DNA from: an uncultured bacterium
GTDB taxonomy: Bacteria; Muiribacteriota; Ozemobacteria; Ozemobacterales; Ozemobacteraceae
Length of the DNA stretch: 64,000 bases
NCBI GenBank assembly: GCA_964483805.1
Contig: CAZADH010000002.1
Location: 1,163-65,162 of the forward strand
Reading direction: 5' to 3'
Shown here: in pieces, positions 42,801 to 64,000 of the stretch
How positions within the stretch are numbered: the first letter of the stretch is position 1
Layout of the letters: each line of letters begins with the position of its first letter
Made by a program: the position numbers and the translations under genes
The notes under the pieces: model-generated
What the model was told of the DNA's origin: nothing
Database searches by the model: none
The model's input: the letters and a program-made list of their open reading frames with translations, nothing else

Positions 42801-45800
42801 CCGGCTCCAGGCGATGCTCGGGGCGGCCGGCAATCGCGATCGTCCGTTGTTGTATGCGAATCTCATCGATATCCTCACGTTGGCCACCTCGACCGCGGCG
42901 CTCGACGAACTCGGGCGCCAGATCCGCCAGGCCGACAACCTGAACGACGCCACCCGCTGGGGCCTGATGTATCGCCTGGGCACCCGCCTGTACGCCATGG
43001 ACCCGAGCAAATCCCGCGAGGTGTTCGCCGAACTGGCCGCCAGCGCCTCGGGAACGACCCGGCTCAAGTGCCTGTTGACGCTGGGCAACATCGCCTACCG
43101 CGTCGAGAAGAACCAGGCCGAAGCCATCAAGGCCTACGAGGCTGCGTTGGCCATGGCCCCGCTCGATCCGCTGCTCGAAACGCCGACGTACCGCCTGGGT
43201 CGTCTCTACGCATGCCGGGGCGAAGGCGTGTTGGCCATCACCACGCTGAATCAGTTCATCCAGCGATTCCCGCTCAGTCGCCACCTGGCGAAGGCCTACC
43301 TCGCGCGCGGCCAGATCGAACTGGCGTTGCACCGGCCCGACCTGGCCGAACGCTCGGTGCGGCGGGCCCTCACCCTCGACCCGCCACTGGCCGAAAAGGC
43401 CAAAGACCTGGTCACACAAATCGAAAAGGCCATGCCGGTCGATCGCTGGCTCGCGGCACGGCGACGGACCCTCGAGGCGCGCCAACTCGAGCAACACGAT
43501 GTATTTATGGCCAGTCTGACCCTGGCCATGACCGCAACCGGAACCTCCCGTGTTCCCGTCCCCGGATGGCGCGAACCCGAGCAATTGCGGGCCCGGGCCG
43601 CTCTGTTGTCGGGGCATGTCGGTTCCGAGACCGGTTCGGCGGCCGGTGACGAACGGTCAGGAGCCACCGCGAGCGGCGCCGAACTGCTCGATGTCGAAAC
43701 GCTGTCGCCGACCGAGATTTATCAGCGTTTTCAGGCCGAGGCGATCAAGGCCAAGCCCGCTCCACAGGTCGGCGCCGAACTGTTGTTGACCCTCCTGCGC
43801 CGCTCACCACGCGAACAACCGCAACTGTGGCAAAAGGCCCTGCGGCAATACATCAGTTGGCGACTCTGGCGGCGGCCCGATCAAGCCGCCTTCGTTAAAG
43901 AGGTCGCGGCGCTGCTCGAACGCCACAACTACAGCGAAGATGTTGCCGAACTGGCCTACCGGCACGGCGCCGTACTCGATCGCGTCTTGCAGCGCTTCGA
44001 GCAGGCGAACAAGTCGTATTTCCAGTATCTCTCCTTCTATCCGAAAGGAGCGCGGGTGAAGCTCGTGCGTGCCCGCATTCCGCAGGTCTACGAGGAACTG
44101 AACGACACCAAATCGGCGAAGCGTTTCTACCAGAAGGTCGTCGACGATCCGCAGATGGGCGACGAACTGCGCGTCGATGCCTCGGTCCGCCTGGGCCGCA
44201 TGATGGCCAAGAGCGACGGCGAGTCGGGGCGCGCCGATATCCAGAAGCTGCTCGAATCCGCGCTGGCACTCGACACACCACGACGGCCCGAACTGTATCT
44301 GCGGCTCGAGAAGCTCACCTCAAACCAGGAGTACGTCGAGCGTGCGCTCGAAGCGAAAGGCGCCGAGCCCTTCCGGCTGCTGGCGTTGAAGCGACTGGTC
44401 AAAAAAGCCGAAGAGAAAGATTTCGACAAAGCGCTCGAACTGGTCGAGAAATACAAATCATCATTCAGCGAAGACGATTCCGTCATCTGGCTCGACAAGA
44501 AACTGAGCGATCTGGCCAAGCGCGGGCAGATCAGCAAGATCGAGGACCAGATCGAACAGTTCCCCGAAGAGGCCCAGACCCCGCAGCGGATCTTCCAGTT
44601 GGCCAACCTCATCGAAGGCCTCGAAAACACCCGCTATCGCTCGCAAGACCTGTTCTACGAAATCACCCTGGTCTACCCACACTCGCAGTATTACCGCGAG
44701 AGCAAGATCCGCGCCGAGAACACCCGGGCCATCGAGGCGGTGCATGCCTTGAGTGCGGCGTTGAAGAAGGGTGTGCAGGGAGCGGACGGCGACTCGTTGT
44801 TGCTCGAGCGCGCGCGCATCTATGCGACCAAGCTGCAAGACGACAGCAAGGCCCAGGAAGACTGCGAAGCCGTGTTGACGCTGTTCCCGAACTCACCGCG
44901 GCGCTGGGAAGCAATGCGGGGCCTGGGCGACGCCATTCTGCGTGCGGAGCGCAACGCGGAGCGCGCGCTGCGGTATTACGAGCAGGCGCTGGCCGCATGT
45001 CCGGATGCCGAGGAACGCGGCAAGCTGACGGCCAAGGTCGACGCGCTCGTCGAGTTTCGCGACAAGGTGCTCGTTGCCGATGGTGATGTGAAGGCCCAAC
45101 AGACGGGCCTCGACCACATCCTCGCGGTCTGGCGCCTCGACCTCGAACCGGAACGGGCGCTCGCGCTGATCCAACAGGCGCGCACGGTGCTCGAGAACAA
45201 GCCGCTCGCCGCCCGCCTGTGGTATCTCGAAGGCCGCCTGCTCGAACAGTCGGGCAAAAAGGCCGCTGCGTTGCTCGCCTATCGCAATGTGGTCGACAGC
45301 ATCGCCAACCCTGGAGCCCGCAAGGATGTCGCCTGGTATCGCATGATGCGCCTGCATCTCGAAGCCGGCGATCGCAGCGCCGCCGAGAAAGACGCCATTG
45401 CGCTGACCACGCGGTATCCGCGCTCGCTGATGGCCCGCAGCGCCTGGTATCGCCTGGCCTGTTGGCGTGAGGAAGCCAAGGATCTGAGCGGGGCGCACGC
45501 GGCACTCGACCGGTTGTTGTCGTACCGGGCGCTGATCCCGACCCACCGCACGCACCTGACCAAGAAACAAGCCGACATCGAGGCGCGCATGAACCTCGAA
45601 GACCTCGATCGGTTGCGTGCCGCCAGCAAGGTGCAGAACAATTTCCGCTATCTGGCCGCCCGCCTGCTCGAGAACGACCAACGCGATTCCGAGCGGGCCA
45701 TGGCGGAGTATCAGGCCTATCTCGCCACCCGCCCGGGCGTCGCCCGTTCGCGCGAAATCCTGATGAAACTGGCCACGATGGCCGAACGCAAGGGCGATTA

Positions 45801-46902: not shown

Positions 46903-48279
46903 GTGCTGCGCGGCAACGACATGATCCAGTTGTTGGAACGCAAAGACCGCTTCGTCATTGACTGGGCGGTGGCTGTGTTGCGCGAAATCGGGCCGGAGCC
47001 GCATCCGCTCGAATCGGAACTGGTCGAGGTCATCAAAGGCACGGCCCTGCCTCTGACCCTCGCCGCCCTGTTGCCGGTCTTGCGTGACGAGAAGAACCCG
47101 CAATCGTTGCGTGACAAAGTGATGGCCAATTTGGTCGAGCGTGACCGGTTGATGCTGCGCTTGATCAACGCGTGCACGCGGGCCAGCCAACGTGAGCGAC
47201 TTCTCAATCCGCTCGCCGCCATGATGGTCGACGCGACCAGCGACATTGCCTGCTTCTCGGCGCTGATCCGGTTGCTCCTCGGGCATCGTGAATCGCGCGA
47301 ACGCCTGCTCGCCGGCTTCGACAGCCTGTCGCGCATCCAGCGTTGGAACGTCGTGGTCAGTCTGGAAGCGACCGGCGATCTGCAGTATCTGTCGTTGTTC
47401 ATTTCGGCCCTCGAAGACAGCGAACCCACGGTCGTGCAGGTGGCGGTGAAAGCCCTGGGGCGTCTGGGCGCCCACGCGGCAATCGACGAGATCATCGGCA
47501 AGCTCACCCATCCGCGCGAAGAGGTTGTGCTCAGCGCCGTGCGCACGCTCAGCGAGTTTCGTGACTCGCGCGCCACGCTGCCGCTCATGAAGCTGATGGC
47601 CGGCACGCGCAGCCATCGCGTCCGCGCCACGGTCATCGCCGCTCTGGGCGGCTTCGCAGAAACACGGACTATTCCGGTAATAACCCGGTATCTCGCCCAC
47701 GGTGACGAGCGGGTGCGTGCGAACGCCGTCTCGGCAATCAGCCAGAAGATGCTGGCCACGGGCAAGCAAGATCCAGAGATCATCAACCGCATTCGCGAAA
47801 TGCTCGGCGATCCCAACCATCGGGTGCGCGCCGATGTCATCAGCAGTCTGTGGCAACTGGGCCAGATCGACAGTCTGACCGAAATCACCAAGATGGCGGC
47901 CTCGACCAACGACGAAGAACGGGCGGCCGGCGCCTATCTGGTCGGGCGCCTCAAGCTTCTGCAGTTCAAAGAGATGCTGATCGGTCTGACCGGCGATCCG
48001 GTGTGGTCGGTGCGCAAACTGGCAGCATTGTCATTGTTGTCGCTTGGCGATGCGGGCAAAGCGGTGTTGAAGGGGTTGTTGTCGCAGGGCGATGAACGCC
48101 AGCGCCTGGTCGCCGCCTTCGCGCTGTCGATGGGCGGTTATCCCGACGCGCACGGCCTGTTGCTGTGGGCCTCGCGCCAGGGCGGCAGCGACGGCGCCCT
48201 CGCCACCCAGTTGTTGAGCCAGTTGTCAGGCACGCCCGTGGGTGCGGTCGCGGCGGGTGACATCGAATCCGACGGTTGA
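46903..48279 (+). CDS. HEAT (PBS-lyase-type) repeat protein
   Basis: Repeats ..VRANAVSAISQ.., ..VRADVISSLWQLG.., ..VRKLAALSLLSLGD... GTG start with GGGAGG SD 4 nt upstream. Confidence 0.75.
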   Translation: MLRGNDMIQLLERKDRFVIDWAVAVLREIGPEPHPLESELVEVIKGTALPLTLAALLPVLRDEKNPQSLRDKVMANLVERDRLMLRLINACTRASQRERLLNPLAAMMVDATSDIACFSALIRLLLGHRESRERLLAGFDSLSRIQRWNVVVSLEATGDLQYLSLFISALEDSEPTVVQVAVKALGRLGAHAAIDEIIGKLTHPREEVVLSAVRTLSEFRDSRATLPLMKLMAGTRSHRVRATVIAALGGFAETRTIPVITRYLAHGDERVRANAVSAISQKMLATGKQDPEIINRIREMLGDPNHRVRADVISSLWQLGQIDSLTEITKMAASTNDEERAAGAYLVGRLKLLQFKEMLIGLTGDPVWSVRKLAALSLLSLGDAGKAVLKGLLSQGDERQRLVAAFALSMGGYPDAHGLLLWASRQGGSDGALATQLLSQLSGTPVGAVAAGDIESDG

Positions 48280-51211
48280 CCCCACCCCGTTGACCGGCGA
48301 CGCCCACAGTTCTGCAGCCCCCCCCAAGGCGTTGCCCCCGTCTGTTCCAGACGACGGCGCGGGACACCGGTCACGCTGGCTGACCGTGCTCATCGGCTGG
48401 ACCATCGTCTACTGCTCGCTCGTGATCACGCCGGCGGTGATGTGCTATATTGTATTTACATCTGCCGCCGCCACTCGCTTCAATAGCCGGCTTGACGACG
48501 TGCGGCGCGACCTGGCGGTGCGCGGCGATCGTCTCGTGGCGCGCTGTGAGCGCGAGAAGGTCGTGGTGGGTCTCGTCGAGGGCCTGAACCGTCGCGGCAT
48601 CGCCGGTTTCCTGGCCAGGGCCCAGACCTGGCAGCGCCATCACCCGGGAGCGATGCGTTGGATCGCCTGGGATCGCACGGGAACGCTGCTCAAGATGCCC
48701 GACGAGTTGTCGGTGAACGGCAAACGTGCCTGGCAGGAGGTCGTACGCAAGATCTGGCATCCCGATGCCGGCAGCCGCACGACGGTGGCCGAGCGCGCCC
48801 AAGTCGTCGCGGGTTTGCAGCGGTTCCTTGGTCGGCGTCCGGTGGCCGGCACGCTGGTCGAGTCACCCCGGCGCCTGATCTCGACGGTCATCCTCGATCG
48901 GCCCTGTTGGTTCGTCTGGGCGCACCACCGGCCAGCACCCCACACGCAACCCGCACCAGTCGGCGATCCGCTCGGGGGGATTCTGCTGCAGGTCTTTCCT
49001 GAGAAACTGCCGGCCCAGTTCTGGATCGATCCGGTCTTGCGCCTGGCCGCGCGCGACCATGCCGACCGCCAGCCTCCGTTCGTCATGTTCGATCTGTGCG
49101 AACCGTGGCGCAATGTGGTGTCACCGTCGTTGGCCCGTCTTTCGCAGGGTTTCGTGCCCACGTTGCGCCGACGTTTTCTCGAGCGCAGCAGCGAACTGAT
49201 CCAGGTCGGTTCCTACATTGCTGTCCCGGTTTCGCTCGACGCGGCGGGCGACACCCCGCAGCGGCTGCTGGTGCTCGCCGACATCGCCGACCTGTACCTG
49301 GAGCGAGCCACCGCCGAGCGCCGATCCGGCCACCTCTTGCTGCTCTTCCTCGTCGCCACAGCAGCCGGTGGAGCATACTGGGGGCGAAGCGGCGGTCACG
49401 GGGTGTCGCTGCGGTTGCGGGTGGTGCTGTTGTTTGGCGCCGCCGTGTTGTTGCCCACGCTCGGCCTGGTCGTCGGCGGCGCCCAGCTCGTCCGGTGGGA
49501 GGACCACAGCGAACGGGCCGTCGCCATCGACATGCTGCAACAGTCGGCGCTGCGGCTGAACGCTCGCGGCTACATGTATTTCGAAGAATACGGCGAACGG
49601 GTCCGGGAGCGCCTGGTCGCCCGCATTACCGGGCTCACCCGGGAACAGGATCTGCTCGCCGCCCTGCGCACGGCCATGCGCCAGGGCCTGGGGTCGAGTT
49701 TCTTCGTTTCCAGACTCGATGGGGGATTGTGGACATCGGGAGGCCGCCGCCTTGCCTCGGGCCCTCTCGAAATGCTGCGTTTCGCCATGCGTCGCGAACA
49801 CAACGAGGACGTCAATCTGCTCGCCCAGAGCGTCGTTTCGCCGCCGGGGCAGAAAGCCGACGTGCCATGGGTGCCCCTGACCGCAACCGCGGGAGCGGTG
49901 GTGTCTCGCATCAACGCCGTGCGCATGCTGCGCCTGGGCGATGCGGAATACGCGGTATTGAAGATGGCCGTCACCATCAACTTCCGCACCCGCCTGGTCA
50001 TCGTGGTATTCGATCCCCACGACCTCGAACTCGATCTGGCGGCCCGTGCCAGTCTGAGTATGCGCCGGCGCGAACTGCGCTCGCCAACCGCGCTCGCGCC
50101 GCGGGTCCATTTCGTGGCGGCAACACCGATCGGCGGCTGTTCCTGGCTCAACGCCTCGCTCGGTCGCCAACCGGCGGTCGCCCGGGCCGTTGCCCTCGAA
50201 AACGAGACGGTGGGCCTCATCGACTGGGCCGGTGAGACTCAACTGTTCTTCGTGCCGGCCCGCGAGACGCGGGCGGTGTTGCGCCCCATCTGGTTGTTGC
50301 CCGACCGCGGCATCCGCGCACGCATGGAGCGGCGGTGGCAGTTGATCGTGCGCACCGCAGCGTTGACTTCGGTGGGCGCGATTGCGCTGGCGTTGGCGCT
50401 CGCGGCCGGCGTTCTCGGGCCGGTTCGCCGCCTCGACCAGGCCGTCGCCGCCGTCCGCGCCGGCGATCTGCACTCCCGGGTCGACGGCGTCACCCGCGAC
50501 GAGATGGGGATCCTGGCCATGGCCTTCAACGACATGGTCGGCCGGTTGCGCGAACGGGAGCGGATGAAGGCCTACGTCTCGGCCACGGTCCTGGCAGCCG
50601 TCCGCGACGACACCGTGTCGCGCGGCGCGAGTGCACGTTCGGCACGCGTCACCGTGCTGTTCTCGCACATCGCCGCTTTTTCCCAGATCGCCCGCACCTG
50701 GACCCCGGAGGCTGTGTTTTCCATGCTCAACAGCTACTTCGCCGGCGTCGAACCGGTCGTGCGTGAGCAGGGCGGCGACATCGACAAGTTCATCGGTGAC
50801 GCGGTCATGGCCAGGTTTTTTGGTGACGGTCAGGAACGGCAGGCGGTCAATGCCGCACTGGCAATGCGCCGGCACTTGAATACATACAACGTAAGTCGCC
50901 AACAGGCCGGGTTGCCCGCAATCAACATCGGGATCGGGATCAACACAGGGGAGGTCATGCTCGGCGATGTCGGCAGCCGCAACCGCAAAGACCTGACCGT
51001 CATCGGCGACGCCGTCAACCTTGCCGCCCGCCTCGAGGTAGTGGCGCATCAGGGCACGCACACGCGCATCGTCGTCTCGGCAGAAACGGCCGGACAGCTC
51101 GAACCGTCGCTGCGACTGGTCGAGTTGGCGGTCACCACGGTCAAGGGCAAAGACCGCCCCGTGCAGGTATTCGAAGTGGTCGGGCCGACCGACGCGCAGG
51201 TGCCCCAGTGA
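48242..51211 (+). CDS. membrane sensor class III nucleotidyl cyclase (cyc3); His replaces first metal-binding Asp
   Basis: HAMP (FNDMVGRLRERERMKAY) followed by VLFSHIAAFSQ ... IDKFIGDAVMA ... TVIGDAVNLAARLE. Start uncertain: the track GTG at 48242 overlaps the HEAT gene by 38 nt, and alternative TTG starts lie at 48290 and 48332. Confidence 0.8.
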   Translation: MRSRRVTSNPTVDPTPLTGDAHSSAAPPKALPPSVPDDGAGHRSRWLTVLIGWTIVYCSLVITPAVMCYIVFTSAAATRFNSRLDDVRRDLAVRGDRLVARCEREKVVVGLVEGLNRRGIAGFLARAQTWQRHHPGAMRWIAWDRTGTLLKMPDELSVNGKRAWQEVVRKIWHPDAGSRTTVAERAQVVAGLQRFLGRRPVAGTLVESPRRLISTVILDRPCWFVWAHHRPAPHTQPAPVGDPLGGILLQVFPEKLPAQFWIDPVLRLAARDHADRQPPFVMFDLCEPWRNVVSPSLARLSQGFVPTLRRRFLERSSELIQVGSYIAVPVSLDAAGDTPQRLLVLADIADLYLERATAERRSGHLLLLFLVATAAGGAYWGRSGGHGVSLRLRVVLLFGAAVLLPTLGLVVGGAQLVRWEDHSERAVAIDMLQQSALRLNARGYMYFEEYGERVRERLVARITGLTREQDLLAALRTAMRQGLGSSFFVSRLDGGLWTSGGRRLASGPLEMLRFAMRREHNEDVNLLAQSVVSPPGQKADVPWVPLTATAGAVVSRINAVRMLRLGDAEYAVLKMAVTINFRTRLVIVVFDPHDLELDLAARASLSMRRRELRSPTALAPRVHFVAATPIGGCSWLNASLGRQPAVARAVALENETVGLIDWAGETQLFFVPARETRAVLRPIWLLPDRGIRARMERRWQLIVRTAALTSVGAIALALALAAGVLGPVRRLDQAVAAVRAGDLHSRVDGVTRDEMGILAMAFNDMVGRLRERERMKAYVSATVLAAVRDDTVSRGASARSARVTVLFSHIAAFSQIARTWTPEAVFSMLNSYFAGVEPVVREQGGDIDKFIGDAVMARFFGDGQERQAVNAALAMRRHLNTYNVSRQQAGLPAINIGIGINTGEVMLGDVGSRNRKDLTVIGDAVNLAARLEVVAHQGTHTRIVVSAETAGQLEPSLRLVELAVTTVKGKDRPVQVFEVVGPTDAQVPQ

Positions 51212-54051
51212 CCCGCAACGACAAGACCGAACCGGCAAGAGTGCCGCTCTGGCAATGGTTTGTCTTGTATCTGCTCGTTGTTGCCCTGCCGTCGTGGATG
51301 GTCGCCGACTATTTCCGGGCGTTGTTTGCCGAACAGGCTGAGACCCGCAGCCAGATGGCCGCAGCCAAGCTTTCGGTCGATGCGGCGGCCGCCGCGCACT
51401 TCTTCCGCTCGTCGTTTCTGCTCGAGTCGCTCCTGACCCGCTCTGCCTGGCCCGAGGCGCGTTGGCCGCAGTTTGTCGAGGCGCTCGAACGTCGCTACCC
51501 AGGTGCCTTTCGCTGGATTCTCTACGACCGATCGCAGCAGATTATCCCCATCGTCCCGACGGCACGCCTGCCCGGCGGCCCGGGGTTGTGGCATCGGGTC
51601 GTGTCGAGTTACGCCATCGCTTCCATGTCGTTCTACCGGTTGCTCGACGCCCGCCTTGGCACCGATCCGCTTCTGGGCGAAGTGCAGCGCGCGCTCGGCC
51701 CCGGTTTTCGGTTCGAGAACCTTCTCTCGACTTCCAGGGGCGTGCTGTACGGCCCCTGGGAAGGCGAACCTGCCGTCATGGCCTGGTGGCAGGATGGTCG
51801 CGATGCGGCTGACAACATCGTGGATCGCGGCCGCTTGCGCGGGTTTTTCGCGGTCATGCGCCCCGGGCGCCTGCCGCCGTTGCTGCCGATGCGCCTCATC
51901 GTCAGGGGCCACGCCGCGGGCATGCGGCGATCGACCTCATCGTTGGTGGCGATCGACCCCGCCGACCCCCGCCGCTTCTACACCCATCCCACTGTTCCGC
52001 GCGAACCGGCCCTGGGCGAACGGCTCTGGACCGCCCATCGCCACCGCACCGCCGACGTTTTCCGCGTCGATCATTGGCTCGCCACCGCCGTGCCCATCCG
52101 CGAGGCCATGGCCGGCAGGGTTTTTCTCCTGCACGACCTGGCCCCCGGGGAACGGCAGTATCAATGGCAATACAACATATTGATGGTCATCCTGTTCGCC
52201 GTGCAAGCCATCGGCGTGCTGTTGCTGCTCTCCTGCTGGCGCCGCGGGGGGCTCGAACTCGGCCTGCGTTGGCGCATCATGAGTGCCCTCTCGCTGGCCA
52301 TGTTGCTGCCGCTCGGCGGCCTGTATCAACTGGGCGAGCGGATGGTGGCGCGCGAGTATCAGGTCCGCCGCGAACAACTGGCGGCCGGTTTGAGCCGGGA
52401 CCTGGCCTTGGTCATGCCACGGTATCGGGACTTCAGCAGTCGGTATGGCGCCGCTCTGCTGGCCTCACTGACACGCGCTGTGGCCGGCCCGTTGTCGGAG
52501 CGGGAGATCAGCACCCGTTTGCAGCGGTTCGTCAGCCGACCGGCCCACCAGGTTTCCGATTTTTACCTGAGCGACGCCCGAGGACGACTGGCCCGCAGCG
52601 GCCGCGAACAGTCAGACCGGCGGTTCAAGACCATTGCCCAGATCATGTTGTCGGGCGTCTTGCGCGACAATGGCGGCCCCACCGAGTCTTCGGCTTTCAA
52701 CGAGAGCATGCTCGAAACCGTGGCCGAGGTCGCCGAGAAAGACCGCCGCATGGACCAGTCGCTGCTGCGGGTAAACGAGTGGGGCCTGCACATGTTCATG
52801 CGCGACTCGCGCTACATCATTGCCCTGCTGCCCCGGGTCGACGGCACCATGCGATCGTTGCTCGTGCCGGTGAATCCGGCACTGGTGAAGGTTCGCTTTG
52901 CCAATCGCGAGTTCGTGCGCGGACTGACGCCGGAGTTGCAGGCCGTCGGGCTGAGCCGGGCGAACTTCACCTCGGACCAGTGGGGGCACATTCCCGCCGT
53001 GCCGGCCTTCTGGCAGAACGGCGAGATTCGCCAGGCCCTCGAAGATCGGCGGACGCAGCGCGCCGGCGAGTTCACGCTCAACAACGGCCGCTTCCTCTAC
53101 CAGACCGGCGCGCGGACCGCGTTGTTTCCTTACATTTTCGTGGGCGTGGCCCCCCTCGACCCGGTCGCGGCCGAGGTCAATCGACACGCATGGGCGTTTC
53201 GGGGTGCGGCCCTCTTTGTCACCGGCCTGGTGGGCGTTCTCGGCTGGTTATTGGCCGCCGGCCTGCTCGCGCCGATCCGTCGCCTCGAAGTAGCGGTGCG
53301 CCAGGTCGCCGCGGGCAACCTCGACGTCGAGGTGGCCGTGGTGGGCCGTGACGAGATTGGTCGCCTGGCCGAGAATTTCAACGACATGTTCCGCGGTCTG
53401 CGCGAGCGCGAGCGCATGCAGGCCTATGTGTCTCCGGCTGTCCTCGAGGCGGTGCGCGACGACGCCACCGCGGCGGGCCAGCAGGCGCGAACCTGCGAGG
53501 CGACGGTGTTCGTTGCCGATATCCGCTCGTTTACGACCCTGTCGGAGAAACATGGACCGCAAGCGATGTTCGCGATGCTCAACGAGTACATGACGGGGGT
53601 CGAGGCGTTGCTTCGCGAGCATGGCGGACGCATCGACAAGTTCATCGGGGACGCCGTCCTGGCGGTGTTTCTCGACCCAGGTCGTGCGGGCGCCCTCGAG
53701 GCGGTGCGGGCAGCATGGGCCGTCACCCGGTTCGTCGCCGAGTTCAGCACCCGCCGGCAACGGGCCGGGTTGTTCGGGGTGGGCGTCGGGGTCGGCATCA
53801 CCACCGGCCGCGTCCTGGTGGGCACGGTCGGCAGCGCAACCCGCAAAGATCTGGCCGTGATTGGTGACGAGGTCGAGCGGGCCGCGCAACTCGAAGCCGC
53901 CTCGAAACAGGGGCGTCACTCGCGCATCATTCTCTCGCCGGCCACCCACGACCTGGTCAAGGATGTAACTCGTTGTATTTCTCTTGCTCCCTCTCACGCC
54001 CGCGATGCCGACCTCGTCGCTTTCGAAGTGGTCGAAGCGCCAAGCGCTTGA
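51208..54051 (+). CDS. membrane sensor class III nucleotidyl cyclase (cyc4); Asps intact, Asn/Arg replaced
   Basis: GTG 51208 overlaps the TGA of cyc3 (GTGA). HAMP (FNDMFRGLRERERMQAY), then VFVADIRSFTTLSE ... IDKFIGDAVLAVF ... VIGDEVERAAQLEAA. Confidence 0.8.
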   Translation: MTRNDKTEPARVPLWQWFVLYLLVVALPSWMVADYFRALFAEQAETRSQMAAAKLSVDAAAAAHFFRSSFLLESLLTRSAWPEARWPQFVEALERRYPGAFRWILYDRSQQIIPIVPTARLPGGPGLWHRVVSSYAIASMSFYRLLDARLGTDPLLGEVQRALGPGFRFENLLSTSRGVLYGPWEGEPAVMAWWQDGRDAADNIVDRGRLRGFFAVMRPGRLPPLLPMRLIVRGHAAGMRRSTSSLVAIDPADPRRFYTHPTVPREPALGERLWTAHRHRTADVFRVDHWLATAVPIREAMAGRVFLLHDLAPGERQYQWQYNILMVILFAVQAIGVLLLLSCWRRGGLELGLRWRIMSALSLAMLLPLGGLYQLGERMVAREYQVRREQLAAGLSRDLALVMPRYRDFSSRYGAALLASLTRAVAGPLSEREISTRLQRFVSRPAHQVSDFYLSDARGRLARSGREQSDRRFKTIAQIMLSGVLRDNGGPTESSAFNESMLETVAEVAEKDRRMDQSLLRVNEWGLHMFMRDSRYIIALLPRVDGTMRSLLVPVNPALVKVRFANREFVRGLTPELQAVGLSRANFTSDQWGHIPAVPAFWQNGEIRQALEDRRTQRAGEFTLNNGRFLYQTGARTALFPYIFVGVAPLDPVAAEVNRHAWAFRGAALFVTGLVGVLGWLLAAGLLAPIRRLEVAVRQVAAGNLDVEVAVVGRDEIGRLAENFNDMFRGLRERERMQAYVSPAVLEAVRDDATAAGQQARTCEATVFVADIRSFTTLSEKHGPQAMFAMLNEYMTGVEALLREHGGRIDKFIGDAVLAVFLDPGRAGALEAVRAAWAVTRFVAEFSTRRQRAGLFGVGVGVGITTGRVLVGTVGSATRKDLAVIGDEVERAAQLEAASKQGRHSRIILSPATHDLVKDVTRCISLAPSHARDADLVAFEVVEAPSA

Positions 54052-57004: not shown

Positions 57005-58102
57005 TCACAACCGCCCCCGCTGCATGTTGAATGAATCGAGGCGGTAGTGAGGGACAAACAGCTCTTTGAAGGTCGCCATGGCAAACCCATCGGTCATGCT
57101 GGCCAGATGATCGACGACCGTTCGCCAGACCGGGGTGTCCGGCGCCACCGGGTGATGCAACCGGGTCAGCAGGCGTTCGGGTTTGCTCATAAAATACTGG
57201 GCCATCTGCCGCAACAACACCCGGCTCTTTTCGATCTCGTCTTCGATTTCGTGGCGGGTGTAGACCTTCTCGTAGAGAAATGCCCGCAACTCCTCGGCGG
57301 CATCGGCCACCGGCTTGCTCAAGGCAATTGCCGGCTTGCCCCAGCTTTCGAGAATGATGTCTTTGACCATGCCGTGAATACGTTGTGAGTTGCGCTCGCC
57401 CAGAAGCGTCACCGGGCCTGCCGGCAAGTCGCTCAGACTGATCAAACCCGCCCGCACCGCATCGTCGATATCGTGATTGATATAGGCCACGAGGTCGGCC
57501 AGGCGGACCACCTGGGCCTCGAGCGTCAACGGGGCTTCGGCAGCGCCGCTGAGCAGCAACGGCCCGGACCGCCCCTTGCTGTGCTTCAGAATGCCGTCGA
57601 CCACCTCGGCGGTCAGGTTGAGGCCCGCACCGTTCTTTTCGAGGTGCCGCACCACGCGCACGCTGTGGACGGCGTGGTGAAACCCTTCGGGCGAAAGCTC
57701 ACCCAGCACCTGCTCACCAGCATGCCCGAACGGGGTGTGCCCCAGATCGTGCCCGAAGGCGATGGCCTCGGTGAGATCTTCGTTGAGCCGCAGCCCACGG
57801 GCAATCGTGCGCGCGATCTGGGCCACCTCGAGGGTGTGCGTCAGGCGGGTGCGAAAGTGATCGTTGCGTGGAGCCAGGAACACCTGGGTCTTGTGCTTCA
57901 ACCGCCGAAACGCCTCGCTGTGCAGGATCCGATCGCGATCGCGTTGAAAACAGGTGCGATAGAAGCAATCGCGCTCCGGCCGGTCGCGCCCGCGCGACGC
58001 CTGGCTCTTGCAGGCGAACGGCGACAGAAACGCCGTTTCCTGGTCCTCGAGCATACGTCGTATGACGTCGCCTTCGGGTCGCTTCACTTCGTGTTCGCTC
58101 AT
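57005..58102 (-). CDS. dGTP triphosphohydrolase-like HD domain protein
   Basis: HD motifs RLTHTLEVAQIAR, FGHDLGHTPFGH and ADLVAYINHDIDD. Confidence 0.8.
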   Translation of the reverse strand: MSEHEVKRPEGDVIRRMLEDQETAFLSPFACKSQASRGRDRPERDCFYRTCFQRDRDRILHSEAFRRLKHKTQVFLAPRNDHFRTRLTHTLEVAQIARTIARGLRLNEDLTEAIAFGHDLGHTPFGHAGEQVLGELSPEGFHHAVHSVRVVRHLEKNGAGLNLTAEVVDGILKHSKGRSGPLLLSGAAEAPLTLEAQVVRLADLVAYINHDIDDAVRAGLISLSDLPAGPVTLLGERNSQRIHGMVKDIILESWGKPAIALSKPVADAAEELRAFLYEKVYTRHEIEDEIEKSRVLLRQMAQYFMSKPERLLTRLHHPVAPDTPVWRTVVDHLASMTDGFAMATFKELFVPHYRLDSFNMQRGRL

Positions 58103-58143: not shown

Positions 58144-58162
58144 CAATACAACAGCAATCAGG
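58144..58162. repeat. CAATACAACAGCAATCAGG element overlapping the thymidine phosphorylase stop codon
   Basis: Shares CAATACAA and AATCAGG with the 35002 and 59529 elements. Its reverse complement with flank shares ATCGTATCCTG plus ATTGCTnnTGTATT with 54122-54147. Confidence 0.4.
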
Positions 58163-59465
58163 ATACGATATCGAGCACCAGCGGCAGCGGTTTGCTCTCG
58201 CGGTCTTCGATGACGAACGATGCCGTCAGCGCCTCGATGGCGCGGCGGTTGTCACGCTTCGGGTCCAGGTGCAACTCGGCGAGGGGTTCACCCTGGGCCA
58301 CCTTATGGCCAACGTGGCGCACGAGCTTCATGCCCACCGCCGGATCAATGATGCTGTCTTTGGTTTCGCGCCCGGCCCCGAGCATCATCGCCGCAATGCC
58401 GACCTGCTCGCACTCGATGCGGGTGATGTAACCGCTGCGGGGCGACGGCAGCGGTTCGACCTTCGTCGCCGCCGGCAGGCGCTCGGGGTGGCGGATCAAT
58501 TCGGGGTCACCGCCCTGCGCTTCGACCATTTCACACAACTTTTGGAACGCCGAACCATCGCTGATGGTTTTCTCGACGCGGGCTTTGGCCTCGGCTGCCG
58601 AGATCTTGCCCCCCGCCGACAACCGCAGTGCTTCGCCGGCCAGCGTGCTCACGAGATCGACGAGATCGCGCGGCCCCTTGCCCTGAAGGGTGGCGATCGC
58701 CTCTTTTACCTCGAGGGCGTTGCCGATCATTTCGCCCAGCGGTTCGTCCATGTTTGACAGCACCGCGACGCACTGGCGCCCCGACTGCTTGCCGATGGCA
58801 ACCATCGCCTGCGCCAGTGCCTTCGCGTCGGCCTGGGTCTTCATGAATGCCCCACTGCCCACCTTCACATCGAGAACGAGACCGTTGTTGGGAACCGTGA
58901 GCTTCTTCGACATGATCGAAGCCGCAATGAGCGGAATCGAGTCGACGGTCGCCGTGACATCACGCAAGGCGTAGATCTTTTTGTCGGCCGGCACGAGATT
59001 GCCGGTCTGACCGACGATGGCCACGCCAATGCGGTTGACCACGGCGATGAACTTGTCGACCGGCAACTCGCAGGTGAACCCTTTGATCGACTCGAGCTTG
59101 TCGATGGTTCCGCCGGTATGCCCAAGCCCGCGGCCCGACATCTTCGCCACTTTCAAACCGAGTGCGGCAAGAATCGGCCCCAACACGAGACTGGTCTTGT
59201 CACCGACACCCCCGGTCGAATGCTTGTCGACCGTGAACCCCTCGATGCCCTTCAACTCCACCTGATCGCCCGACCGGCGCATGGCGTCGGTCAACCAGAA
59301 GGTTTCCTCGGCATCCATGCCTTTGAAGTAGATGGCCATGAGCATCGCCGCCATCTGATAATCAGGCAGCGTCCCTTTGACGTAACCCTCGACCAGAGCG
59401 TCGATTTCGGCCGCCGTCAGTTTGACACCATCGCGCTTCTTTTTGATCAGATCGTACGGACGCAT
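58158..59465 (-). CDS. thymidine / pyrimidine-nucleoside phosphorylase
   Basis: Full-length match to family features (MRPYDLIKKKRDG..., HSTGGVGDKTSLVLGPILAALG, GRGLGHTGGTIDKLE). AAGGAG SD 8 nt before ATG 59465. Confidence 0.9.
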   Translation of the reverse strand: MRPYDLIKKKRDGVKLTAAEIDALVEGYVKGTLPDYQMAAMLMAIYFKGMDAEETFWLTDAMRRSGDQVELKGIEGFTVDKHSTGGVGDKTSLVLGPILAALGLKVAKMSGRGLGHTGGTIDKLESIKGFTCELPVDKFIAVVNRIGVAIVGQTGNLVPADKKIYALRDVTATVDSIPLIAASIMSKKLTVPNNGLVLDVKVGSGAFMKTQADAKALAQAMVAIGKQSGRQCVAVLSNMDEPLGEMIGNALEVKEAIATLQGKGPRDLVDLVSTLAGEALRLSAGGKISAAEAKARVEKTISDGSAFQKLCEMVEAQGGDPELIRHPERLPAATKVEPLPSPRSGYITRIECEQVGIAAMMLGAGRETKDSIIDPAVGMKLVRHVGHKVAQGEPLAELHLDPKRDNRRAIEALTASFVIEDRESKPLPLVLDIVS

Positions 59466-59528
59466 GCTTCGGCTCCTTGCTTCGCAGTCGACATGGTCAG
59501 CCCACAGGGAGGGCGGCGGGAACAAGAG

Positions 59529-59552
59529 CAATACAGAATATTACAGAATCAG
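59529..59552. repeat. CAATACAGAATATTACAGAATCAG element overlapping the small-ORF stop codon
   Basis: Near-identical to 35002-35025. Lies in the 83-bp gap between the small ORF and thymidine phosphorylase. Confidence 0.45.
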
Positions 59553-59740
59553 CGCTTGATCCGGGCCAGGCGGATGTTGTTGGCCTGGTAACAACGGTCG
59601 TAGGCTTCGCAATCGTAGCACGCCTGCTGGCGGTCAGGCGCATCGATCTTCATGTCCTCGACACGCATGCCGGTCATATTCCATTTGGCGAAGAGATCGG
59701 TTCCAAAACACTTGGGCATCTTGGCTTGCGGAACGGCCAT
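59549..59740 (-). CDS. small Cys-containing hypothetical protein (63 aa; C-x29-C-x2-C-x5-C)
   Basis: GC3-rich codon usage. Co-oriented with thymidine phosphorylase. No known domain recognised. Confidence 0.35.
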   Translation of the reverse strand: MAVPQAKMPKCFGTDLFAKWNMTGMRVEDMKIDAPDRQQACYDCEAYDRCYQANNIRLARIKR

Positions 59741-59883
59741 GGTCTTTGTTTACCTCGTATTCTTGATCTTGATGGCTGAGTGGCCGTAACGGAACACGTG
59801 CCGACCGACAACCGGCAGGCATCATAGCACAGCCGGCAGGGATCGACCAACCGTTGCGTGCACGTCGACGTAATATCTCAGTA

Positions 59884-60005
59884 AGCGGGGGCACGCGCCC
59901 CCGCTCGGCTCGCGGCACAGGTCCGCGAGCCTCACACCCCGCGGTCGGCCGCGTTGCGGCCTTCGTATTTCGCCGGCAAACGCCACCGGTAACGGAGAGG
60001 TTACC
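59884..60005 (+). other. array of four consecutive GC-rich stem-loops in the leader of the YmdB-like/CHASE2-cyclase operon
   Basis: AGCGGGGGC-acgc-GCCCCCGCT (59884-59905), GGCTCGCGG-cacaggt-CCGCGAGCC (59907-59931), GGCCGC-gtt-GCGGCC (59947-59961, followed by TTCGTATTT), GGTAAC-ggagag-GTTACC (59988-60005). Confidence 0.4.
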
Positions 60006-60206
60006 ACCGCGACCCGACGCCCCGGTTTCTGTGGCAAACCTGCAACAGCAGCGGATCCTTCGCTTGTCTGGACCTCACCCCCGTGTTACCATGCTGGCAC
60101 GGACTGAAACGGTGCTGGCGTGCTCGTTCTGCCGACAGCGAGAGCAACGCCCGCTCACGACCGCAACAGAATCCAGGCACTCTGGCACAGGAAGGCGGCA
60201 GATTAC

Positions 60207-61007
60207 GTGTTGTCGTTGTTGCTCCTGGGTGAAATCTCGGGCCGCGTCGGCATTCGCGCCATCGAGACGGCCGCACCGACCTGGCGACGGGCCAACCCCA
60301 GGCCACTGGTGATCGCCAATGCCGGCGGGCTGCTCGGCACCGCCGGGCTCACCCGCGACGTGGTGACCGGGCTTGCCGATGCCGGCATCGACGTGCTGAC
60401 CGTAACCCCACGGGCGGCGGCCACACCCCGCGCCCGCGCACTTCTTGCCGATGGTCACGGGATGGTCCGCCCGTTGAACGCACCCGCCGGGTTTCCCGGA
60501 TGCGGCACCCGACTGCTCGAAACCGCCCAGGGACGGCTGCAGTTCGCGGTGGTGCACACGTGGTCCGATTTCGACGGTCTCGATGATCCGTTCGCGGCGC
60601 TCGCACGCTGGAGCCAGAATCTGGCCGGCAACGATGCGATCCTGCTCGAGATCCAGGGCCAGGATGTGCGCGAGAAGATCGGCCTTGCCCGCTGGTTTCG
60701 CCGCACCCGAACGGCTCCCGTCCACTGGTTCGGCACCGGACTGGGCATCGTGGCCGGCGGGCGTGAGTTGACGCCGACAGGCATCGAACTGATCGATGTG
60801 GGCCGCTGCGGCGCGCAGGCCGGCGTGCTCGGCGAAGACCTCGATTCCTGGCTGGCACGCACCCGCGACCGCCGCCACGCCGGGCCAGTCGAGACACCCA
60901 ATGACGTGCGCCTCGATGGCGTCCGCCTCGCCCTCGATCGCCAGGGCTCACCGCTCGAGGTCGCACCATGGGCCTTTATCCCACCGAGCAAAGCGGTCGC
61001 CTCGTGA
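60207..61007 (+). CDS. YmdB-like (TIGR00282/calcineurin-fold) pseudo-phosphoesterase: all His/Asn metal ligands substituted
   Basis: Collinear with B. subtilis YmdB (LLLGEISGRVG ~ LFIGDVVGSPG; LVIANAGGLLGTAGLT ~ FTIINGENAAHGKGLT; DVLTVTPRAA ~ DAITMGNHTW; GMVRPLNAPAGFPGCG ~ NLVRPANFPEGTPGKG; DDPF conserved; WFGTGLGI ~ VVGTHTHV). The track ORF starts at 60120; the likely start is GTG 60207, with AGGAAGG 11 nt upstream. Confidence 0.6.
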   Translation: MLSLLLLGEISGRVGIRAIETAAPTWRRANPRPLVIANAGGLLGTAGLTRDVVTGLADAGIDVLTVTPRAAATPRARALLADGHGMVRPLNAPAGFPGCGTRLLETAQGRLQFAVVHTWSDFDGLDDPFAALARWSQNLAGNDAILLEIQGQDVREKIGLARWFRRTRTAPVHWFGTGLGIVAGGRELTPTGIELIDVGRCGAQAGVLGEDLDSWLARTRDRRHAGPVETPNDVRLDGVRLALDRQGSPLEVAPWAFIPPSKAVAS

Positions 61008-62998
61008 TCACGCGCGGACGCATCATTCTTATTGCTTTTGTATTGCTGTGGTGGCTGGCCTCGACCTGGACCGCCCACCAGGGCTGGCTGAACCGCACCG
61101 ACGAGATGCTCGAAGACATGCAGTGGCGCCTGCGCTGGGCGTTGGTGCCCGATCGAACGCCAAGCCAGGTGGTCACGCTGCTGATCACCCGCAACGATGT
61201 CGTGCAGTTGTCGTCGGCACACAGTTTCGAGTGGCCGCTCAACCGACGGTGGTTCGGGCGCGTCGTCGAGGTCCTGCAGCGGTGCCGGGCCCGGGCCGTC
61301 GGCTTCGACATGGCTTTTCTGCCCTCCACAAAGACCGATGGCGACCCGTTGTTCGCGGCTGCACTCGCATCGTGGCCCCGCCGGGTGGTGCTCGGCACCG
61401 AACTGCAGGGAACCCTGGCCGGTTCAGCGAATGATGAAGATGACGACGAGGAAGGCTACGGGCAGGGCCTGCGACCCACCCCGGTCAAGACCGAGTTCGC
61501 CTCGCCGGCCTGGGGGTTGGGCGCGTTCAATTTCCTCGAGAACCGCGAGGGCACCGAGATTCCGCGGGTGATGCCCCTCCACTTCCCGGTGAACGGCCGG
61601 TGCTTCCCCGGCCTGGCGCTGGCGACCTGGATGGCAGGCCAAGACCGATCGGTGGCATTGACTGCCGCATCCGGCGCTGTCCAGTTGGGGCCGACCCTCC
61701 GTTTTCCGGCCGAGGAGCTCATCCCCGACGGGCGAACGTTCTTCGTCGACCGTGTGCTGAGTCCGATTTTCCCGGAGAATCCGCATTTGCGCTTCCATGC
61801 CCTGTTCGCCTTTCACGATGAACGGGTCACCTTCGCTGCCTACAAAGACGCGGTCTCGTTTGCCCAGCTCGCGCTGTGCAACCCGAACGATGGCCCGGCA
61901 GTTGCTTCGCTGGCCCGCATTCTTGCCGACAAATATGTCTTGATCGGGGTCGGCGAGAACACCCTGGGCGACGTGATCCAGATGCCCAACCAGCCGCGCC
62001 GGGTTGCGGGGGTGATGCTGCACGCCGCCATGCTCGACGGCCTGACCCGCCACGAGGGCTTCCTGTCTCGTTGTCGATCGGCGGGGTGGCGCACCACCGT
62101 CGCCGGCATCGCCCTGGCCCTGTCGCTGTTCGTCCTGTTCACCCAGGCCCGTTTCTCACCGCTCCGCGGCCTCCTCACCGCGCTGGGCGGTTTCATCACC
62201 GTCGTCGTCACACTGTTCGCCCTGTTCTGTGGCGGGGTGCTGCTGCCGTGGTCGGTCATTCCGGTGACGTTCATCGGCGTGCTCCCCGCATGCTATTTCT
62301 ACGGGTACCTGGTCGAAGGTCGCGAGAAAGCGCAGATCAAAGACATCTTCAAGAAACAGGTGTCGCCCGAGATCGTCGATGAGCTGCTGACGCGTGCCGA
62401 CGAGATCATGGCCGCCCGTCGCCAGGAGATCTCGGTAGGTTTCATCGATGTTTGCGGCTTTACCAGTTTCTCTGAATCCCATTCACCCGAACGCGTACTC
62501 GTGCAACTTAATCACTACTTCAGTCGTATCATTCCGGACCTCATGCAACGACGGGTAACGCTCGACAAACTGATTGGCGACGCGCTCATGATCACGACCG
62601 GCGTTCCGTTGCCCGACCCGGCGCATGCGGTACGGTTGGTCGAGGCGGCCGCGGCGATTCGCAAGATGGTCGCGCAGATCAACACGAATCTTCCGCCTGG
62701 CTTCGAACCGTTTACCGTCAGTTGTGGTATTAACTCTGGCGACGCCATTGTCGGCAATGTGGGTTCGCGGGAACGCATGGAGTACACCGTCATCGGCGAT
62801 GTGGTGAATCTGGCTGCCCGCCTGCAAGGGGTGGCAAAGAGTCAGGAGATCGTCGTGGGGCCAAGAACCTACGAGATGACGCGTGATCGGTTCCAGTATC
62901 GCCCGTTACCCCCTCTCACGGTGAAGGGCAAATCCGAACCGGTGCAGGCCTACATGCTCCTCGAACCCGCAGACATCCAGCATTCGCAAACCCTGTGA
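60968..62998 (+). CDS. CHASE2 sensor domain class III nucleotidyl cyclase (canonical catalytic residues)
   Basis: N-terminal TM then CHASE2 region (VTLLITRNDVVQLSS..WPLNRRWFGRVVEVL..AVGFDMAFL). TM cluster. Cyclase GFIDVCGFT ... LIGDALMI ... YTVIGDVVNLAARLQG. ATG 60968 has a GAGGT SD; an alternative GTG at 61004 overlaps the upstream stop (GTGA). Confidence 0.85.
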   Translation: MGLYPTEQSGRLVITRGRIILIAFVLLWWLASTWTAHQGWLNRTDEMLEDMQWRLRWALVPDRTPSQVVTLLITRNDVVQLSSAHSFEWPLNRRWFGRVVEVLQRCRARAVGFDMAFLPSTKTDGDPLFAAALASWPRRVVLGTELQGTLAGSANDEDDDEEGYGQGLRPTPVKTEFASPAWGLGAFNFLENREGTEIPRVMPLHFPVNGRCFPGLALATWMAGQDRSVALTAASGAVQLGPTLRFPAEELIPDGRTFFVDRVLSPIFPENPHLRFHALFAFHDERVTFAAYKDAVSFAQLALCNPNDGPAVASLARILADKYVLIGVGENTLGDVIQMPNQPRRVAGVMLHAAMLDGLTRHEGFLSRCRSAGWRTTVAGIALALSLFVLFTQARFSPLRGLLTALGGFITVVVTLFALFCGGVLLPWSVIPVTFIGVLPACYFYGYLVEGREKAQIKDIFKKQVSPEIVDELLTRADEIMAARRQEISVGFIDVCGFTSFSESHSPERVLVQLNHYFSRIIPDLMQRRVTLDKLIGDALMITTGVPLPDPAHAVRLVEAAAAIRKMVAQINTNLPPGFEPFTVSCGINSGDAIVGNVGSRERMEYTVIGDVVNLAARLQGVAKSQEIVVGPRTYEMTRDRFQYRPLPPLTVKGKSEPVQAYMLLEPADIQHSQTL

Positions 62999-63148: not shown

Positions 63149-64000
63149 ATGGTTGTCCCGAGAATTTGGAGCATTGAGAACTTGGTGGACAAGCTCGACA
63201 AGGAACTGATCTTCGCGCTTTATGAAGCGCAGAAACAGGCCTTGGCGCATCAGGGCGACCTCGACTCGCTCCTGACCACGTTTGTTCGTACCGCCGACAT
63301 TCTCACCGGGCGTGCCGACTTCGCCCTGCTCCTCTATGAGCATGGCACCGATTCGGTCCGCGTTCGCTTTCAAAATGGCAACGAACCCGGCAATCTCGAT
63401 GGCCTGAAGCAACAGGTCAAGGTATTGGCGACCGGCGGTGAGAAACCGGCCCTGCCAAGGGTCGCCGAGGCGAATGCCGAGTCTTTGCTGCTGCCGCTCG
63501 GTTCCGAGAAAGTGTTCGGCGCGGTCGTGGTCGGCAAGGGCAAGATCGCCGATCCGGCCAGACACTTTGAACTGCTCGAGTTCCAGGCGCTGATCACCAC
63601 GGCCGTCGAGCGTCTGCGCCGCGGCCAACACCTGCAGCTCCAAATGGACGAACTCGGTACGCTTTACGAGGTCGGCAAGGTCATCAGCTCAACCCTCGAC
63701 CTGACCGACCTGCTCAAGAAGATCATGGCCATGGCTACCAAGGTCATGCAATGCGAGACCAGCACGGTTTATTTGATCGACAGAGAGACCAACGAGATCT
63801 ACTTCCATATCGTGCAGGGCGAGGGCAACGTGGCCGCGAAGCTACGCGAAATGCGCTTGCCGATGGGCACCGGTCTCGCCGGATGGTGCGCCCAGCACAA
63901 CGAGCCGGTCATCGTTCCCGATACCTCGAAAGACCCACGGTTCTTCAAGGGTGGCGACAAGAAGTCCGGGTTTGTCACCCGCTCGATGATCTGTGTGCCG
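63149..64000 (+). CDS. GAF domain protein (at least two GAF domains), 3' end beyond window; absent from the ORF track because no stop
   Basis: VMQCETSTVYLIDRETNEIYFHIVQGEG ... LPMGTGLAGWCAQHNEPVIVPDTSKDPRFFKGGDKKSGFVTRSMICVP is a classical GAF. Start between ATG 63149 and TTG/GTG 63182-63185 (GGAG at 63166-63169). Confidence 0.65.
   Translation, partial: MVVPRIWSIENLVDKLDKELIFALYEAQKQALAHQGDLDSLLTTFVRTADILTGRADFALLLYEHGTDSVRVRFQNGNEPGNLDGLKQQVKVLATGGEKPALPRVAEANAESLLLPLGSEKVFGAVVVGKGKIADPARHFELLEFQALITTAVERLRRGQHLQLQMDELGTLYEVGKVISSTLDLTDLLKKIMAMATKVMQCETSTVYLIDRETNEIYFHIVQGEGNVAAKLREMRLPMGTGLAGWCAQHNEPVIVPDTSKDPRFFKGGDKKSGFVTRSMICVP

Follow-up and report, generated by a model that had tools for sequence, protein, structure and literature searches.

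YmdB governs biofilm and colony development in Bacillus, and its true substrate and mode of action are debated. In B. subtilis the RNase Y gene (rny) is located immediately upstream of ymdB. The D8A variant of B. subtilis YmdB is a catalytic-site mutant, and both the ymdB and the D8A mutants accumulate cyclic AMP (cAMP) (PMC4785774). The single literature match for YmdB as a pseudoenzyme concerns, judging from its title, the unrelated E. coli macrodomain protein of the same name and was set aside. For the breakdown of cyclic di-GMP (c-di-GMP), the GAF-HD-GYP protein Tlr0485 has been described, which hydrolyses c-di-GMP only if cAMP is bound to its GAF domain (bioRxiv 10.1101/2021.11.05.467447). 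Here we analysed a 64,000-nucleotide stretch of contig CAZADH010000002.1 from an uncultured bacterium of the Ozemobacteraceae (assembly GCA_964483805.1), called the window in the following. It encodes a degenerate member of the YmdB family, for which we use the name pYmdB, followed by a CHASE2 adenylate cyclase and a GAF-HD-GYP c-di-GMP phosphodiesterase. We consider it moderately probable that pYmdB has no catalytic activity and serves as a subunit or regulator in a GAF-HD-GYP c-di-GMP phosphodiesterase module that responds to cAMP.

Fold and metal site of pYmdB

The gene is located as follows:

60207..61007, plus strand: pYmdB coding sequence, 266 amino acids, GTG start (family matches, N-termini of homologues, structural model)

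The maximal open reading frame (ORF) covers 60120..61007 on the plus strand and opens at GTG 60120. The likely start is GTG 60207, which is preferred because the N-termini of the homologues (MLSLLxLGE) and the database entry P0001 agree with it. The G+C content at third codon positions is 0.79, equal to that of the neighbouring genes, and the raised overall G+C content is due to a composition rich in Ala, Gly, Arg and Pro and not to non-coding sequence.

The original prediction had described the product as a protein collinear with YmdB, and profile as well as structure comparisons agree with this. pYmdB matches the Pfam family PF13277 with E 1.1e-26 and 94 bits (cut-off 27) over profile positions 1-245 of 253. 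In a phmmer search of the PDB it matched TTHA0625 (2cv9, E 2e-18), B. subtilis YmdB (4b2o, E 3e-11) and DR1281 (1t70, E 2e-8), and when the profile of its clade was aligned with 16 canonical YmdBs, hhalign returned a probability of 100% and E 1e-45 over 258 collinear columns. The AlphaFold2 (AF2) model, based on a 26-sequence alignment, has a pLDDT (predicted local distance difference test) of 91 and a pTM (predicted template modelling score) of 0.90. In Foldseek the model reached template modelling (TM) scores of 0.80-0.85 to 2cv9, 1t70, 4b2o and 1t71; after these four YmdB-family structures the next matches, which are 5'-nucleotidases, reach a TM score of only 0.56. The hypothetical equivalog model TIGR00282 of NCBIfam gives pYmdB 55.5 bits, below its cut-off of 254.15. 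The scaffold motifs that had been named as retained, DDPF (as LDDPF) and VRPLNAPAGFPGCG, were found, and the residues G8, N38, G60, R88-P89-x-N91, P97-G98, P128, K157, G176, D197-x-G199 and G209 are conserved in the degenerate clade and in the canonical YmdBs alike.

The ligand columns were examined in a census of 163 cluster representatives, for which 1.84 billion proteins had been searched exhaustively with HMMER. Together with this census, general metallophosphoesterase motifs and the D8A mutant cited in PMC4785774 are the basis on which the YmdB metal ligands are named here. About 110-125 canonical representatives read D-E-N-N/D-H-H-H-H at the eight columns almost without exception. pYmdB reads E-G-G-P-R-Q-G-G at the same columns, i.e., the alignments show all eight ligands substituted in register. 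The substitutions lie in five motifs, all assigned from the alignments:

60231..60233, plus strand: motif I, codon E9, GD changed to GE, in the place of ligand D8
60318..60329, plus strand: motif II, codons N38-A39-G40-G41, NGEN changed to NAGG (E39 to G, N40 to G)
60405..60413, plus strand: motif III, codons T67-P68-R69, GNH changed to TPR (N67 to P, H68 to R)
60651..60662, plus strand: motif IV, codons I149-Q150-G151-Q152, FHAE changed to IQGQ (H150 to Q150); G151 is conserved within the clade
60732..60746, plus strand: motif V, codons G176-T177-G178-L179-G180, GTHTH changed to GTGLG (H175 to G, H177 to G)

The claim that every metal ligand is replaced therefore holds, also by hhalign. For motif IV the loss of the histidine was predicted correctly, but the pairing of FHAE with LEIQ is two residues out of register, as the alignments pair FHAE with IQGQ. 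Profile alignment finds none of the ligands present in register, and all syntenic orthologues are degenerate too. Across the clade the D8 column is occupied by E, D, V, T, S, P, A or K, and glycine is found at three former ligand positions, G41 in 80%, G178 in 93% and G180 in 75% of the members. A clade-specific insertion of two residues with a conserved histidine, H173 (PVHW), directly precedes motif V. The Metallophos family PF00149 matches the canonical proteins but is absent from the clade members. As the YmdB fold and the non-metal scaffold loops are kept and the dinuclear metal site is gone, we conclude that pYmdB is not a metal-dependent phosphodiesterase, and it is very probably no metallophosphoesterase at all.

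Four YmdB-family representatives (P0057, P0070, P0084 and P0133) carry only some of the ligands, for example EESNRHHR or EEGEKHAS; from their sequences they may be intermediates or independent partial degenerations.

The residues conserved only in the clade are G41, R73, R77, G151, W162, H173, G178, G180, P212, W215 and W216. With H173, R73 and R77 this set includes newly invariant or nearly invariant polar residues, and R88, N91, K157 and D197 are common to the clade and the active YmdBs. pYmdB could thus be a re-tooled enzyme, metal-independent or differently liganded, which acts on a nucleotide or another phosphoester via His173, Arg73, Arg77 and the Trp residues. However, the glycines at three ligand positions indicate that side chains were removed rather than replaced, the window copy has a Thr at R73, and we know of no metallophosphoesterase-fold enzyme that works without the dinuclear site. 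We regard a re-tooled enzyme as decidedly unlikely.

A word-indexed protein search with pYmdB returned only the protein itself and canonical YmdBs at 31% identity or less, and a genome scan with pYmdB as single query returned nothing. It was the exhaustive HMMER search that exposed the degenerate clade, in which the nearest relative of pYmdB is 38% identical. The degenerate pattern is common to about 30 representatives and to the copies recovered from genomes and metagenomes. In a neighbour-joining tree calculated with the ligand columns removed, 40 degenerate sequences form one monophyletic clade without any canonical YmdB inside; the tree was rooted with a canonical outgroup, as midpoint rooting had been misleading. 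All named members belong to Candidatus Riflebacteria/Ozemobacteraceae and are labelled "YmdB family metallophosphoesterase" at NCBI, and NCBIfam has no model for the clade. The best homologues of the window genes likewise come from Riflebacteria, which together with the gene order suggests a divergent member of this phylum as their source.

Seven within-clade pairs gave ratios of non-synonymous to synonymous substitution rates (dN/dS) of 0.14-0.32 for pYmdB and of 0.05-0.17 for the adjacent HD-GYP gene. pYmdB is clearly under purifying selection, and we are highly confident that it is a functional gene. These values bear on the view that pYmdB is a decaying relic without a function of its own, retained by its position in the operon only. 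Such a relic would account for the loss of every catalytic residue, for an evolution faster than that of the neighbours and for a window copy with several departures from the clade consensus and a high content of Ala, Arg and Gly. However, 16 loci as well as about 40 cluster representatives, whose identities have dropped to 21-43%, have intact ORFs, the fold prediction is confident, and besides the low dN/dS there is clade-specific conservation, of glycine at three former ligand positions, of H173 and of W215. This explanation is disfavoured by these data and is extremely improbable.

The probable GAF-HD-GYP partner and the adenylate cyclase

The conserved neighbourhood was analysed in 16 distinct loci, of which 12 were assembled via pYmdB and 4 from the HD-GYP side, the latter being the unbiased direction. 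In the search for loci via pYmdB a 10-sequence subset of the clade was used, since an alignment of all clade members proved too divergent for this purpose; most of the loci returned were canonical YmdB loci and were set aside after a check of the ligands. A GAF-HD-GYP gene is located downstream of pYmdB in all 16 loci, including 4/4 of those retrieved from the HD-GYP side. In the window it is only partly covered:

63182..64000, plus strand: gene of a PmGH-family GAF-HD-GYP c-di-GMP phosphodiesterase, 5' part of 273 codons, running off the window

The full product (653 amino acids) was read from L001, a public contig identical to the window. It consists of an N-terminal domain, a GAF domain (E 1e-22) and an HD-GYP domain (PF13487, E 1e-38), and it matches PmGH (4mcw) with E 5e-66. 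LLHDVGK and HHHEYYDGRGYP are present, i.e., the HD and HHExxDGxGYP motifs are intact, and the GAF domain matches GAF domains that bind cyclic nucleoside monophosphates (cNMPs). Past the end of the window (L001:4540-4978) the C-terminal tail of the protein is of low complexity and contains the motif QPFPPIHP(N)E four times.

At the position of E185 in PmGH the window family reads KDPYTHGH against KDPETQNH in PmGH, and thus has Tyr in place of Glu. It therefore falls outside the trinuclear subgroup that carries Glu or Asp at this position and is able to hydrolyse pGpG, and the enzyme of the window probably cleaves c-di-GMP only to pGpG. No conversion of pGpG to GMP was seen with HD-GYPs that have Tyr at this position, but exceptions to this rule are described (bioRxiv 10.1101/2021.11.05.467447).

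The gene between pYmdB and the HD-GYP gene of the window encodes a cyclase, which overlaps pYmdB:

60968..62998, plus strand: CHASE2 class IIIb adenylate cyclase, 676 amino acids (domain matches; best PDB match CyaB, 3r5g)
60968..61007, plus strand: overlap of pYmdB and cyclase gene, with two candidate cyclase starts (supported by the orthologous junctions)

The cyclase has an N-terminal transmembrane helix, a CHASE2 domain (amino acids 31-378), three transmembrane helices, for which the translation was inspected by eye, and a cyclase domain (amino acids 482-664). CHASE2 and Guanylate_cyc score 95 and 93 bits in Pfam, above threshold. The catalytic domain aligns best with the P. aeruginosa adenylate cyclase CyaB (3r5g, E 1e-27), with which it shares the motifs FxDxxGFT, DKxxGD, YTxxG and VNxAxR. 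Both metal-binding Asp residues, the ATP-specifying Lys/Thr pair and the Asn and Arg of the transition state are kept; the guanylate cyclase Cya2 (2w01) differs from the window protein at the specificity positions. As these CyaB-like catalytic and specificity residues are intact, the protein is apparently an active class IIIb adenylate cyclase.

The stop codon of pYmdB, a TGA, is located at 61005-61007. An in-frame ATG of the cyclase lies at 60968, 37 nucleotides upstream, with a GAGG at 60957-60960, 7 nucleotides before the ATG; the alternative start GTG 61004 overlaps the stop codon as GTGA. Both starts had been noted in the original prediction, together with a translational coupling of the two genes. 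Junctions of the ATGA type were found in L005 and L085 and a gap of 2 nucleotides (TGAacATG) in L007. Where the cyclase occurs, its close junction with pYmdB is thus conserved, and the two are probably translationally coupled.

It had also been suggested that pYmdB acts beside this cyclase as a regulatory subunit or as a sensor which binds nucleotides; it might, for example, bind cAMP and feed back on the cyclase. The overlapping or closely spaced junctions as well as the apparent competence of the cyclase speak for such a role. However, the cyclase lies between pYmdB and the HD-GYP gene in only 5 of the 16 loci (the window, L002, L005, L007 and L085); it is missing there from the other 11, where pYmdB is intact and under selection. 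Its presence differs even among close relatives, as L005 has it and L006 does not. In addition, a natural fusion described below joins YmdB to HD-GYP and not to a cyclase. With the HD-GYP gene following in every locus, a subunit of the HD-GYP module is better supported than a subunit of the cyclase, which we consider rather improbable.

Upstream of pYmdB, a gene for a protein of about 500-566 amino acids directly precedes it in 12 of the 16 loci and is absent from the window, L084 and L090. Examples, assigned from sequence features, are:

L002:6227-7927, barrel-like gene
L003:6462-7973, barrel-like gene
L005:1868-3421, barrel-like gene
L168:4422-5978, barrel-like gene
L169:4356-5936, barrel-like gene
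L172:4348-5880, barrel-like gene

The protein is rich in Tyr, Asp and Asn and has no match in Pfam; with its signal peptide and a Phe as last residue it resembles an outer-membrane barrel protein. From its position and these features one might think that pYmdB mainly serves this protein in an envelope system, with the nucleotide signalling genes being a mere regulatory neighbourhood. We consider this very unlikely, because pYmdB persists where the barrel-like gene is missing and itself has no signal peptide, and the fusion ties YmdB to HD-GYP.

This fusion turned up when the HD-GYP protein was used as query in a protein search, where it ranked behind about 90 orthologues from Riflebacteria. 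YmdB, GAF and HD-GYP are combined in one chain of 833-870 amino acids in six cluster representatives (P0271, P0273, P0274, P0277, P0287 and P0288). The named members of these clusters are Candidatus Wallbacteria (e.g., OGM02492.1), and the genes are found at L164:8001-10613 and L165:8001-10505. The order of the domains is an intact YmdB, a GAF-like middle domain, GAF and HD-GYP. The YmdB domain has every ligand (GD, NGEN, GNH, FHAE and GTHxH), and the HD-GYP domain reads KDSYTHGH and is thus of the Tyr type like the window family. Amino acids 14-541 of the Riflebacteria HD-GYP protein are collinear with amino acids 294-823 of the fusion at 46% identity, and amino acids 5-209 of pYmdB align with its amino acids 1-212. 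What Wallbacteria encode as one polypeptide is therefore divided between two genes in Riflebacteria, and the gene-fusion ("Rosetta stone") argument suggests that YmdB and this HD-GYP enzyme work together. That pYmdB works with the HD-GYP module is accordingly what we consider likely.

The nearest HD-GYP homologue examined outside Riflebacteria and Wallbacteria comes from the Deltaproteobacteria (CP070770.1, L171:6283-9557). Here a GAF-GAF-HD-GYP gene is flanked by genes for a cNMP-binding protein and for a class II cNMP phosphodiesterase of the metallo-beta-lactamase type (PF02112, Apyc1-like). A cNMP phosphodiesterase is thus found beside a GAF-HD-GYP enzyme for the second time.

Proposed role of pYmdB

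In the module that we propose, the CHASE2 cyclase would sense an extracytoplasmic signal and form cAMP, which would bind to the cNMP-type GAF domain and switch on the HD-GYP enzyme, as with Tlr0485. The HD-GYP enzyme would then degrade c-di-GMP, with pGpG as the probable end product. The active YmdB that is attached to it in Wallbacteria might remove cAMP and thereby reset the signal, or remove pGpG and thereby finish the degradation. In Riflebacteria the activity of YmdB would have been lost, and pYmdB would have remained as a subunit without catalysis, tuning the HD-GYP enzyme or serving as its scaffold and possibly still holding the nucleotide that its ancestor hydrolysed (cAMP or pGpG). 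Physical contact between pYmdB and the HD-GYP enzyme, ligand binding and the direction of regulation are the parts that we infer.

Nucleotide binding by pYmdB is a tentative and rather doubtful part of this proposal. The more far-reaching idea that pYmdB is a new second-messenger receptor, whose metal-free fold would exert allosteric control over the HD-GYP phosphodiesterase on binding cAMP, pGpG or c-di-GMP, is unlikely. If it were true, the Wallbacteria fusion would show that YmdB-type enzymes finish or reset cyclic-nucleotide signalling by turnover of pGpG or cNMPs, and this would provide a testable answer to the question what YmdB acts on in vivo.

Several observations weigh against the proposed module. 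By dN/dS pYmdB evolves about 2-5 times faster than its HD-GYP partner. The window copy is among the more divergent members of the clade and departs from the consensus at 5 of 12 clade-specific positions (R73T, R122F, W162R, P212L and W216L), which may mean a weaker constraint in its lineage. The exchange of D8 to E is conservative, and residual binding of one metal is therefore conceivable. In the window the cyclase and HD-GYP genes are separated by a gap of 183 nucleotides; they may therefore be transcribed separately, the HD-GYP gene perhaps with a promoter of its own. The AF2 model of the fusion has confident domains and a pTM of 0.48, with a disordered linker (267-286) and no defined interface between YmdB and HD-GYP. 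Moreover, the YmdB domains of the fusions were not clearly recovered as sister to the degenerate clade in the neighbour-joining tree, so that an independent recruitment of YmdB beside HD-GYP is possible.

A reading of the locus as an anti-phage defence system (Pycsar or CBASS) was rejected, as PADLOC was negative: it gave no match for pYmdB or the barrel-like protein, only domain-level similarity of the cyclase to PycC (E 1e-16, catalytic domain) and only weak Cas3 HD matches for the HD-GYP protein.

Surroundings of the gene and comparison with known systems

The region in front of pYmdB takes the place in which the barrel-like gene is found elsewhere:

59532..60206, no strand: upstream region of pYmdB, between pYmdB and the divergent pyrimidine-nucleoside phosphorylase gene; barrel-like gene absent

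It contains just one ORF, a putative gene of 63 amino acids at 59549..59740 on the minus strand, immediately upstream of the phosphorylase gene. Its translation is rich in Cys (CFGTD...CYDCEAYDRCYQ) and has no family match in Pfam. Further upstream the minus strand encodes the pyrimidine-nucleoside phosphorylase (58158-59531) and a dGTPase-like HD phosphohydrolase (57005-58102, HD and HD_assoc); both are genes of nucleotide salvage with no evident link to the pYmdB operon. A scan of the whole window against Rfam gave no match to an RNA element, and a promoter and terminator scan performed no better than on shuffled sequence.

Several of the cyclase-free Riflebacteria loci have a CHASE2-GAF-GGDEF diguanylate cyclase and a divergent sigma-54 activator 3-6 kb upstream of pYmdB:

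L003:1456-3792, region of diguanylate cyclase and sigma-54 activator
L168:507-2900, region of diguanylate cyclase and sigma-54 activator
L169:104-2374, region of diguanylate cyclase and sigma-54 activator
L170:525-2873, region of diguanylate cyclase and sigma-54 activator

From its gene content, the Riflebacteria locus looks like a c-di-GMP signalling island.

The window contains four more large class III cyclase genes with HAMP and cyclase domains, at 3315-6764 and 6665-10303 on the minus strand and at 48242-51211 and 51208-54051 on the plus strand. Two of the four are in tandem and overlapping, and together with the CHASE2 cyclase there are five cyclases in 64 kb. The HAMP-cyclase gene at 48242-51211 is preceded by a gene for a HEAT-repeat protein (46903-48279, plus strand), the pair lying 9-13 kb upstream of pYmdB. 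A pair of this kind is also found 2-4 kb upstream of the Wallbacteria fusion gene (L164:1307-5868), which may be a conserved neighbourhood or a coincidence. At 39895-46812 on the plus strand a protein of 2305 amino acids is encoded, which consists nearly entirely of TPR repeats and has a YfiO/BamD-like segment.

Compared with the canonical YmdBs (4B2O, 2CV9 and 1T70), pYmdB is alike in fold and collinearity and in RPxNxPxGxPG, DDPF, K157 of the canonical SEK motif and DxGxxG. It differs by the loss of the five metallophosphoesterase motifs, by the low TIGR00282 score and by the two-residue insertion with a new conserved His. Its neighbours are cNMP and c-di-GMP signalling genes and no RNase Y gene adjoins; where rny would be expected from B. 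subtilis, the window has the divergent phosphorylase gene. In a canonical Bacillota locus (L013) an upstream ORF has an N-terminus that resembles RNase Y, as judged by eye only. The NCBI label is thus given to proteins without metal-binding residues, and our analysis corrects this annotation.

In the Wallbacteria fusions the HD-GYP half is 46-61% identical to the Riflebacteria protein, and both have Tyr at the PmGH E185 position. However, YmdB is ligand-complete and covalently linked in the fusion, whereas the window has separate genes, a dead YmdB and a CHASE2 cyclase gene in between. A dead YmdB beside a GAF-HD-GYP gene in one candidate phylum and, in a second one, the fusion of that enzyme with an intact YmdB tie the family to cAMP/c-di-GMP signalling, and pYmdB and the Wallbacteria YmdB domain provide a natural pair of inactive and active forms for experiments.

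The window HD-GYP protein resembles PmGH and Tlr0485 in its HD and HHExxDGxGYP motifs, with the close match to 4MCW mentioned above, but the window family has an additional N-terminal domain of about 160 amino acids and a Pro-rich repeat tail. The activation of Tlr0485 by cAMP on its GAF domain fits the presence of an adenylate cyclase in the same operon, and the operon suggests a wiring from an extracytoplasmic CHASE2 sensor via cAMP to c-di-GMP breakdown. No YmdB-like partner has been described for either PmGH or Tlr0485. Within the paper collection searched, no paper describes the clade or the fusion or ties YmdB to a pseudoenzyme role or to HD-GYP; the one paper in which YmdB and HD-GYP both occur is irrelevant, judging from its title and abstract, and a survey of HD-GYP architectures does not mention fusions with YmdB or metallophosphoesterases.

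Degenerate GGDEF, EAL and HD-GYP domains serve as receptors or adaptors in LapD, FimX and PelD. ECA3548 is another degenerate second-messenger domain (bioRxiv 10.1101/2021.11.05.467447). pYmdB would follow the same logic by analogy, in that the fold of a second-messenger enzyme has become inactive but still serves its pathway by binding or regulation; its fold differs from theirs, and its ligand binding is only putative. In this way pYmdB adds a pseudoenzyme with a metallophosphoesterase fold to the dead signalling enzymes that are retained as regulators. Retromer Vps29 and the B subunits of eukaryotic DNA polymerases have calcineurin-like folds with degenerate metal sites and act as subunits for protein-protein interaction within larger enzymes. 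Vps29 was among the weak Foldseek matches of pYmdB, but these proteins are distant and belong to another family, domain of life and pathway, so that the likeness can serve as an analogy only. Taken together, the pYmdB clade belongs to a known family, of which it forms a pseudoenzyme branch; what is new is the signalling context and not the kind of system.

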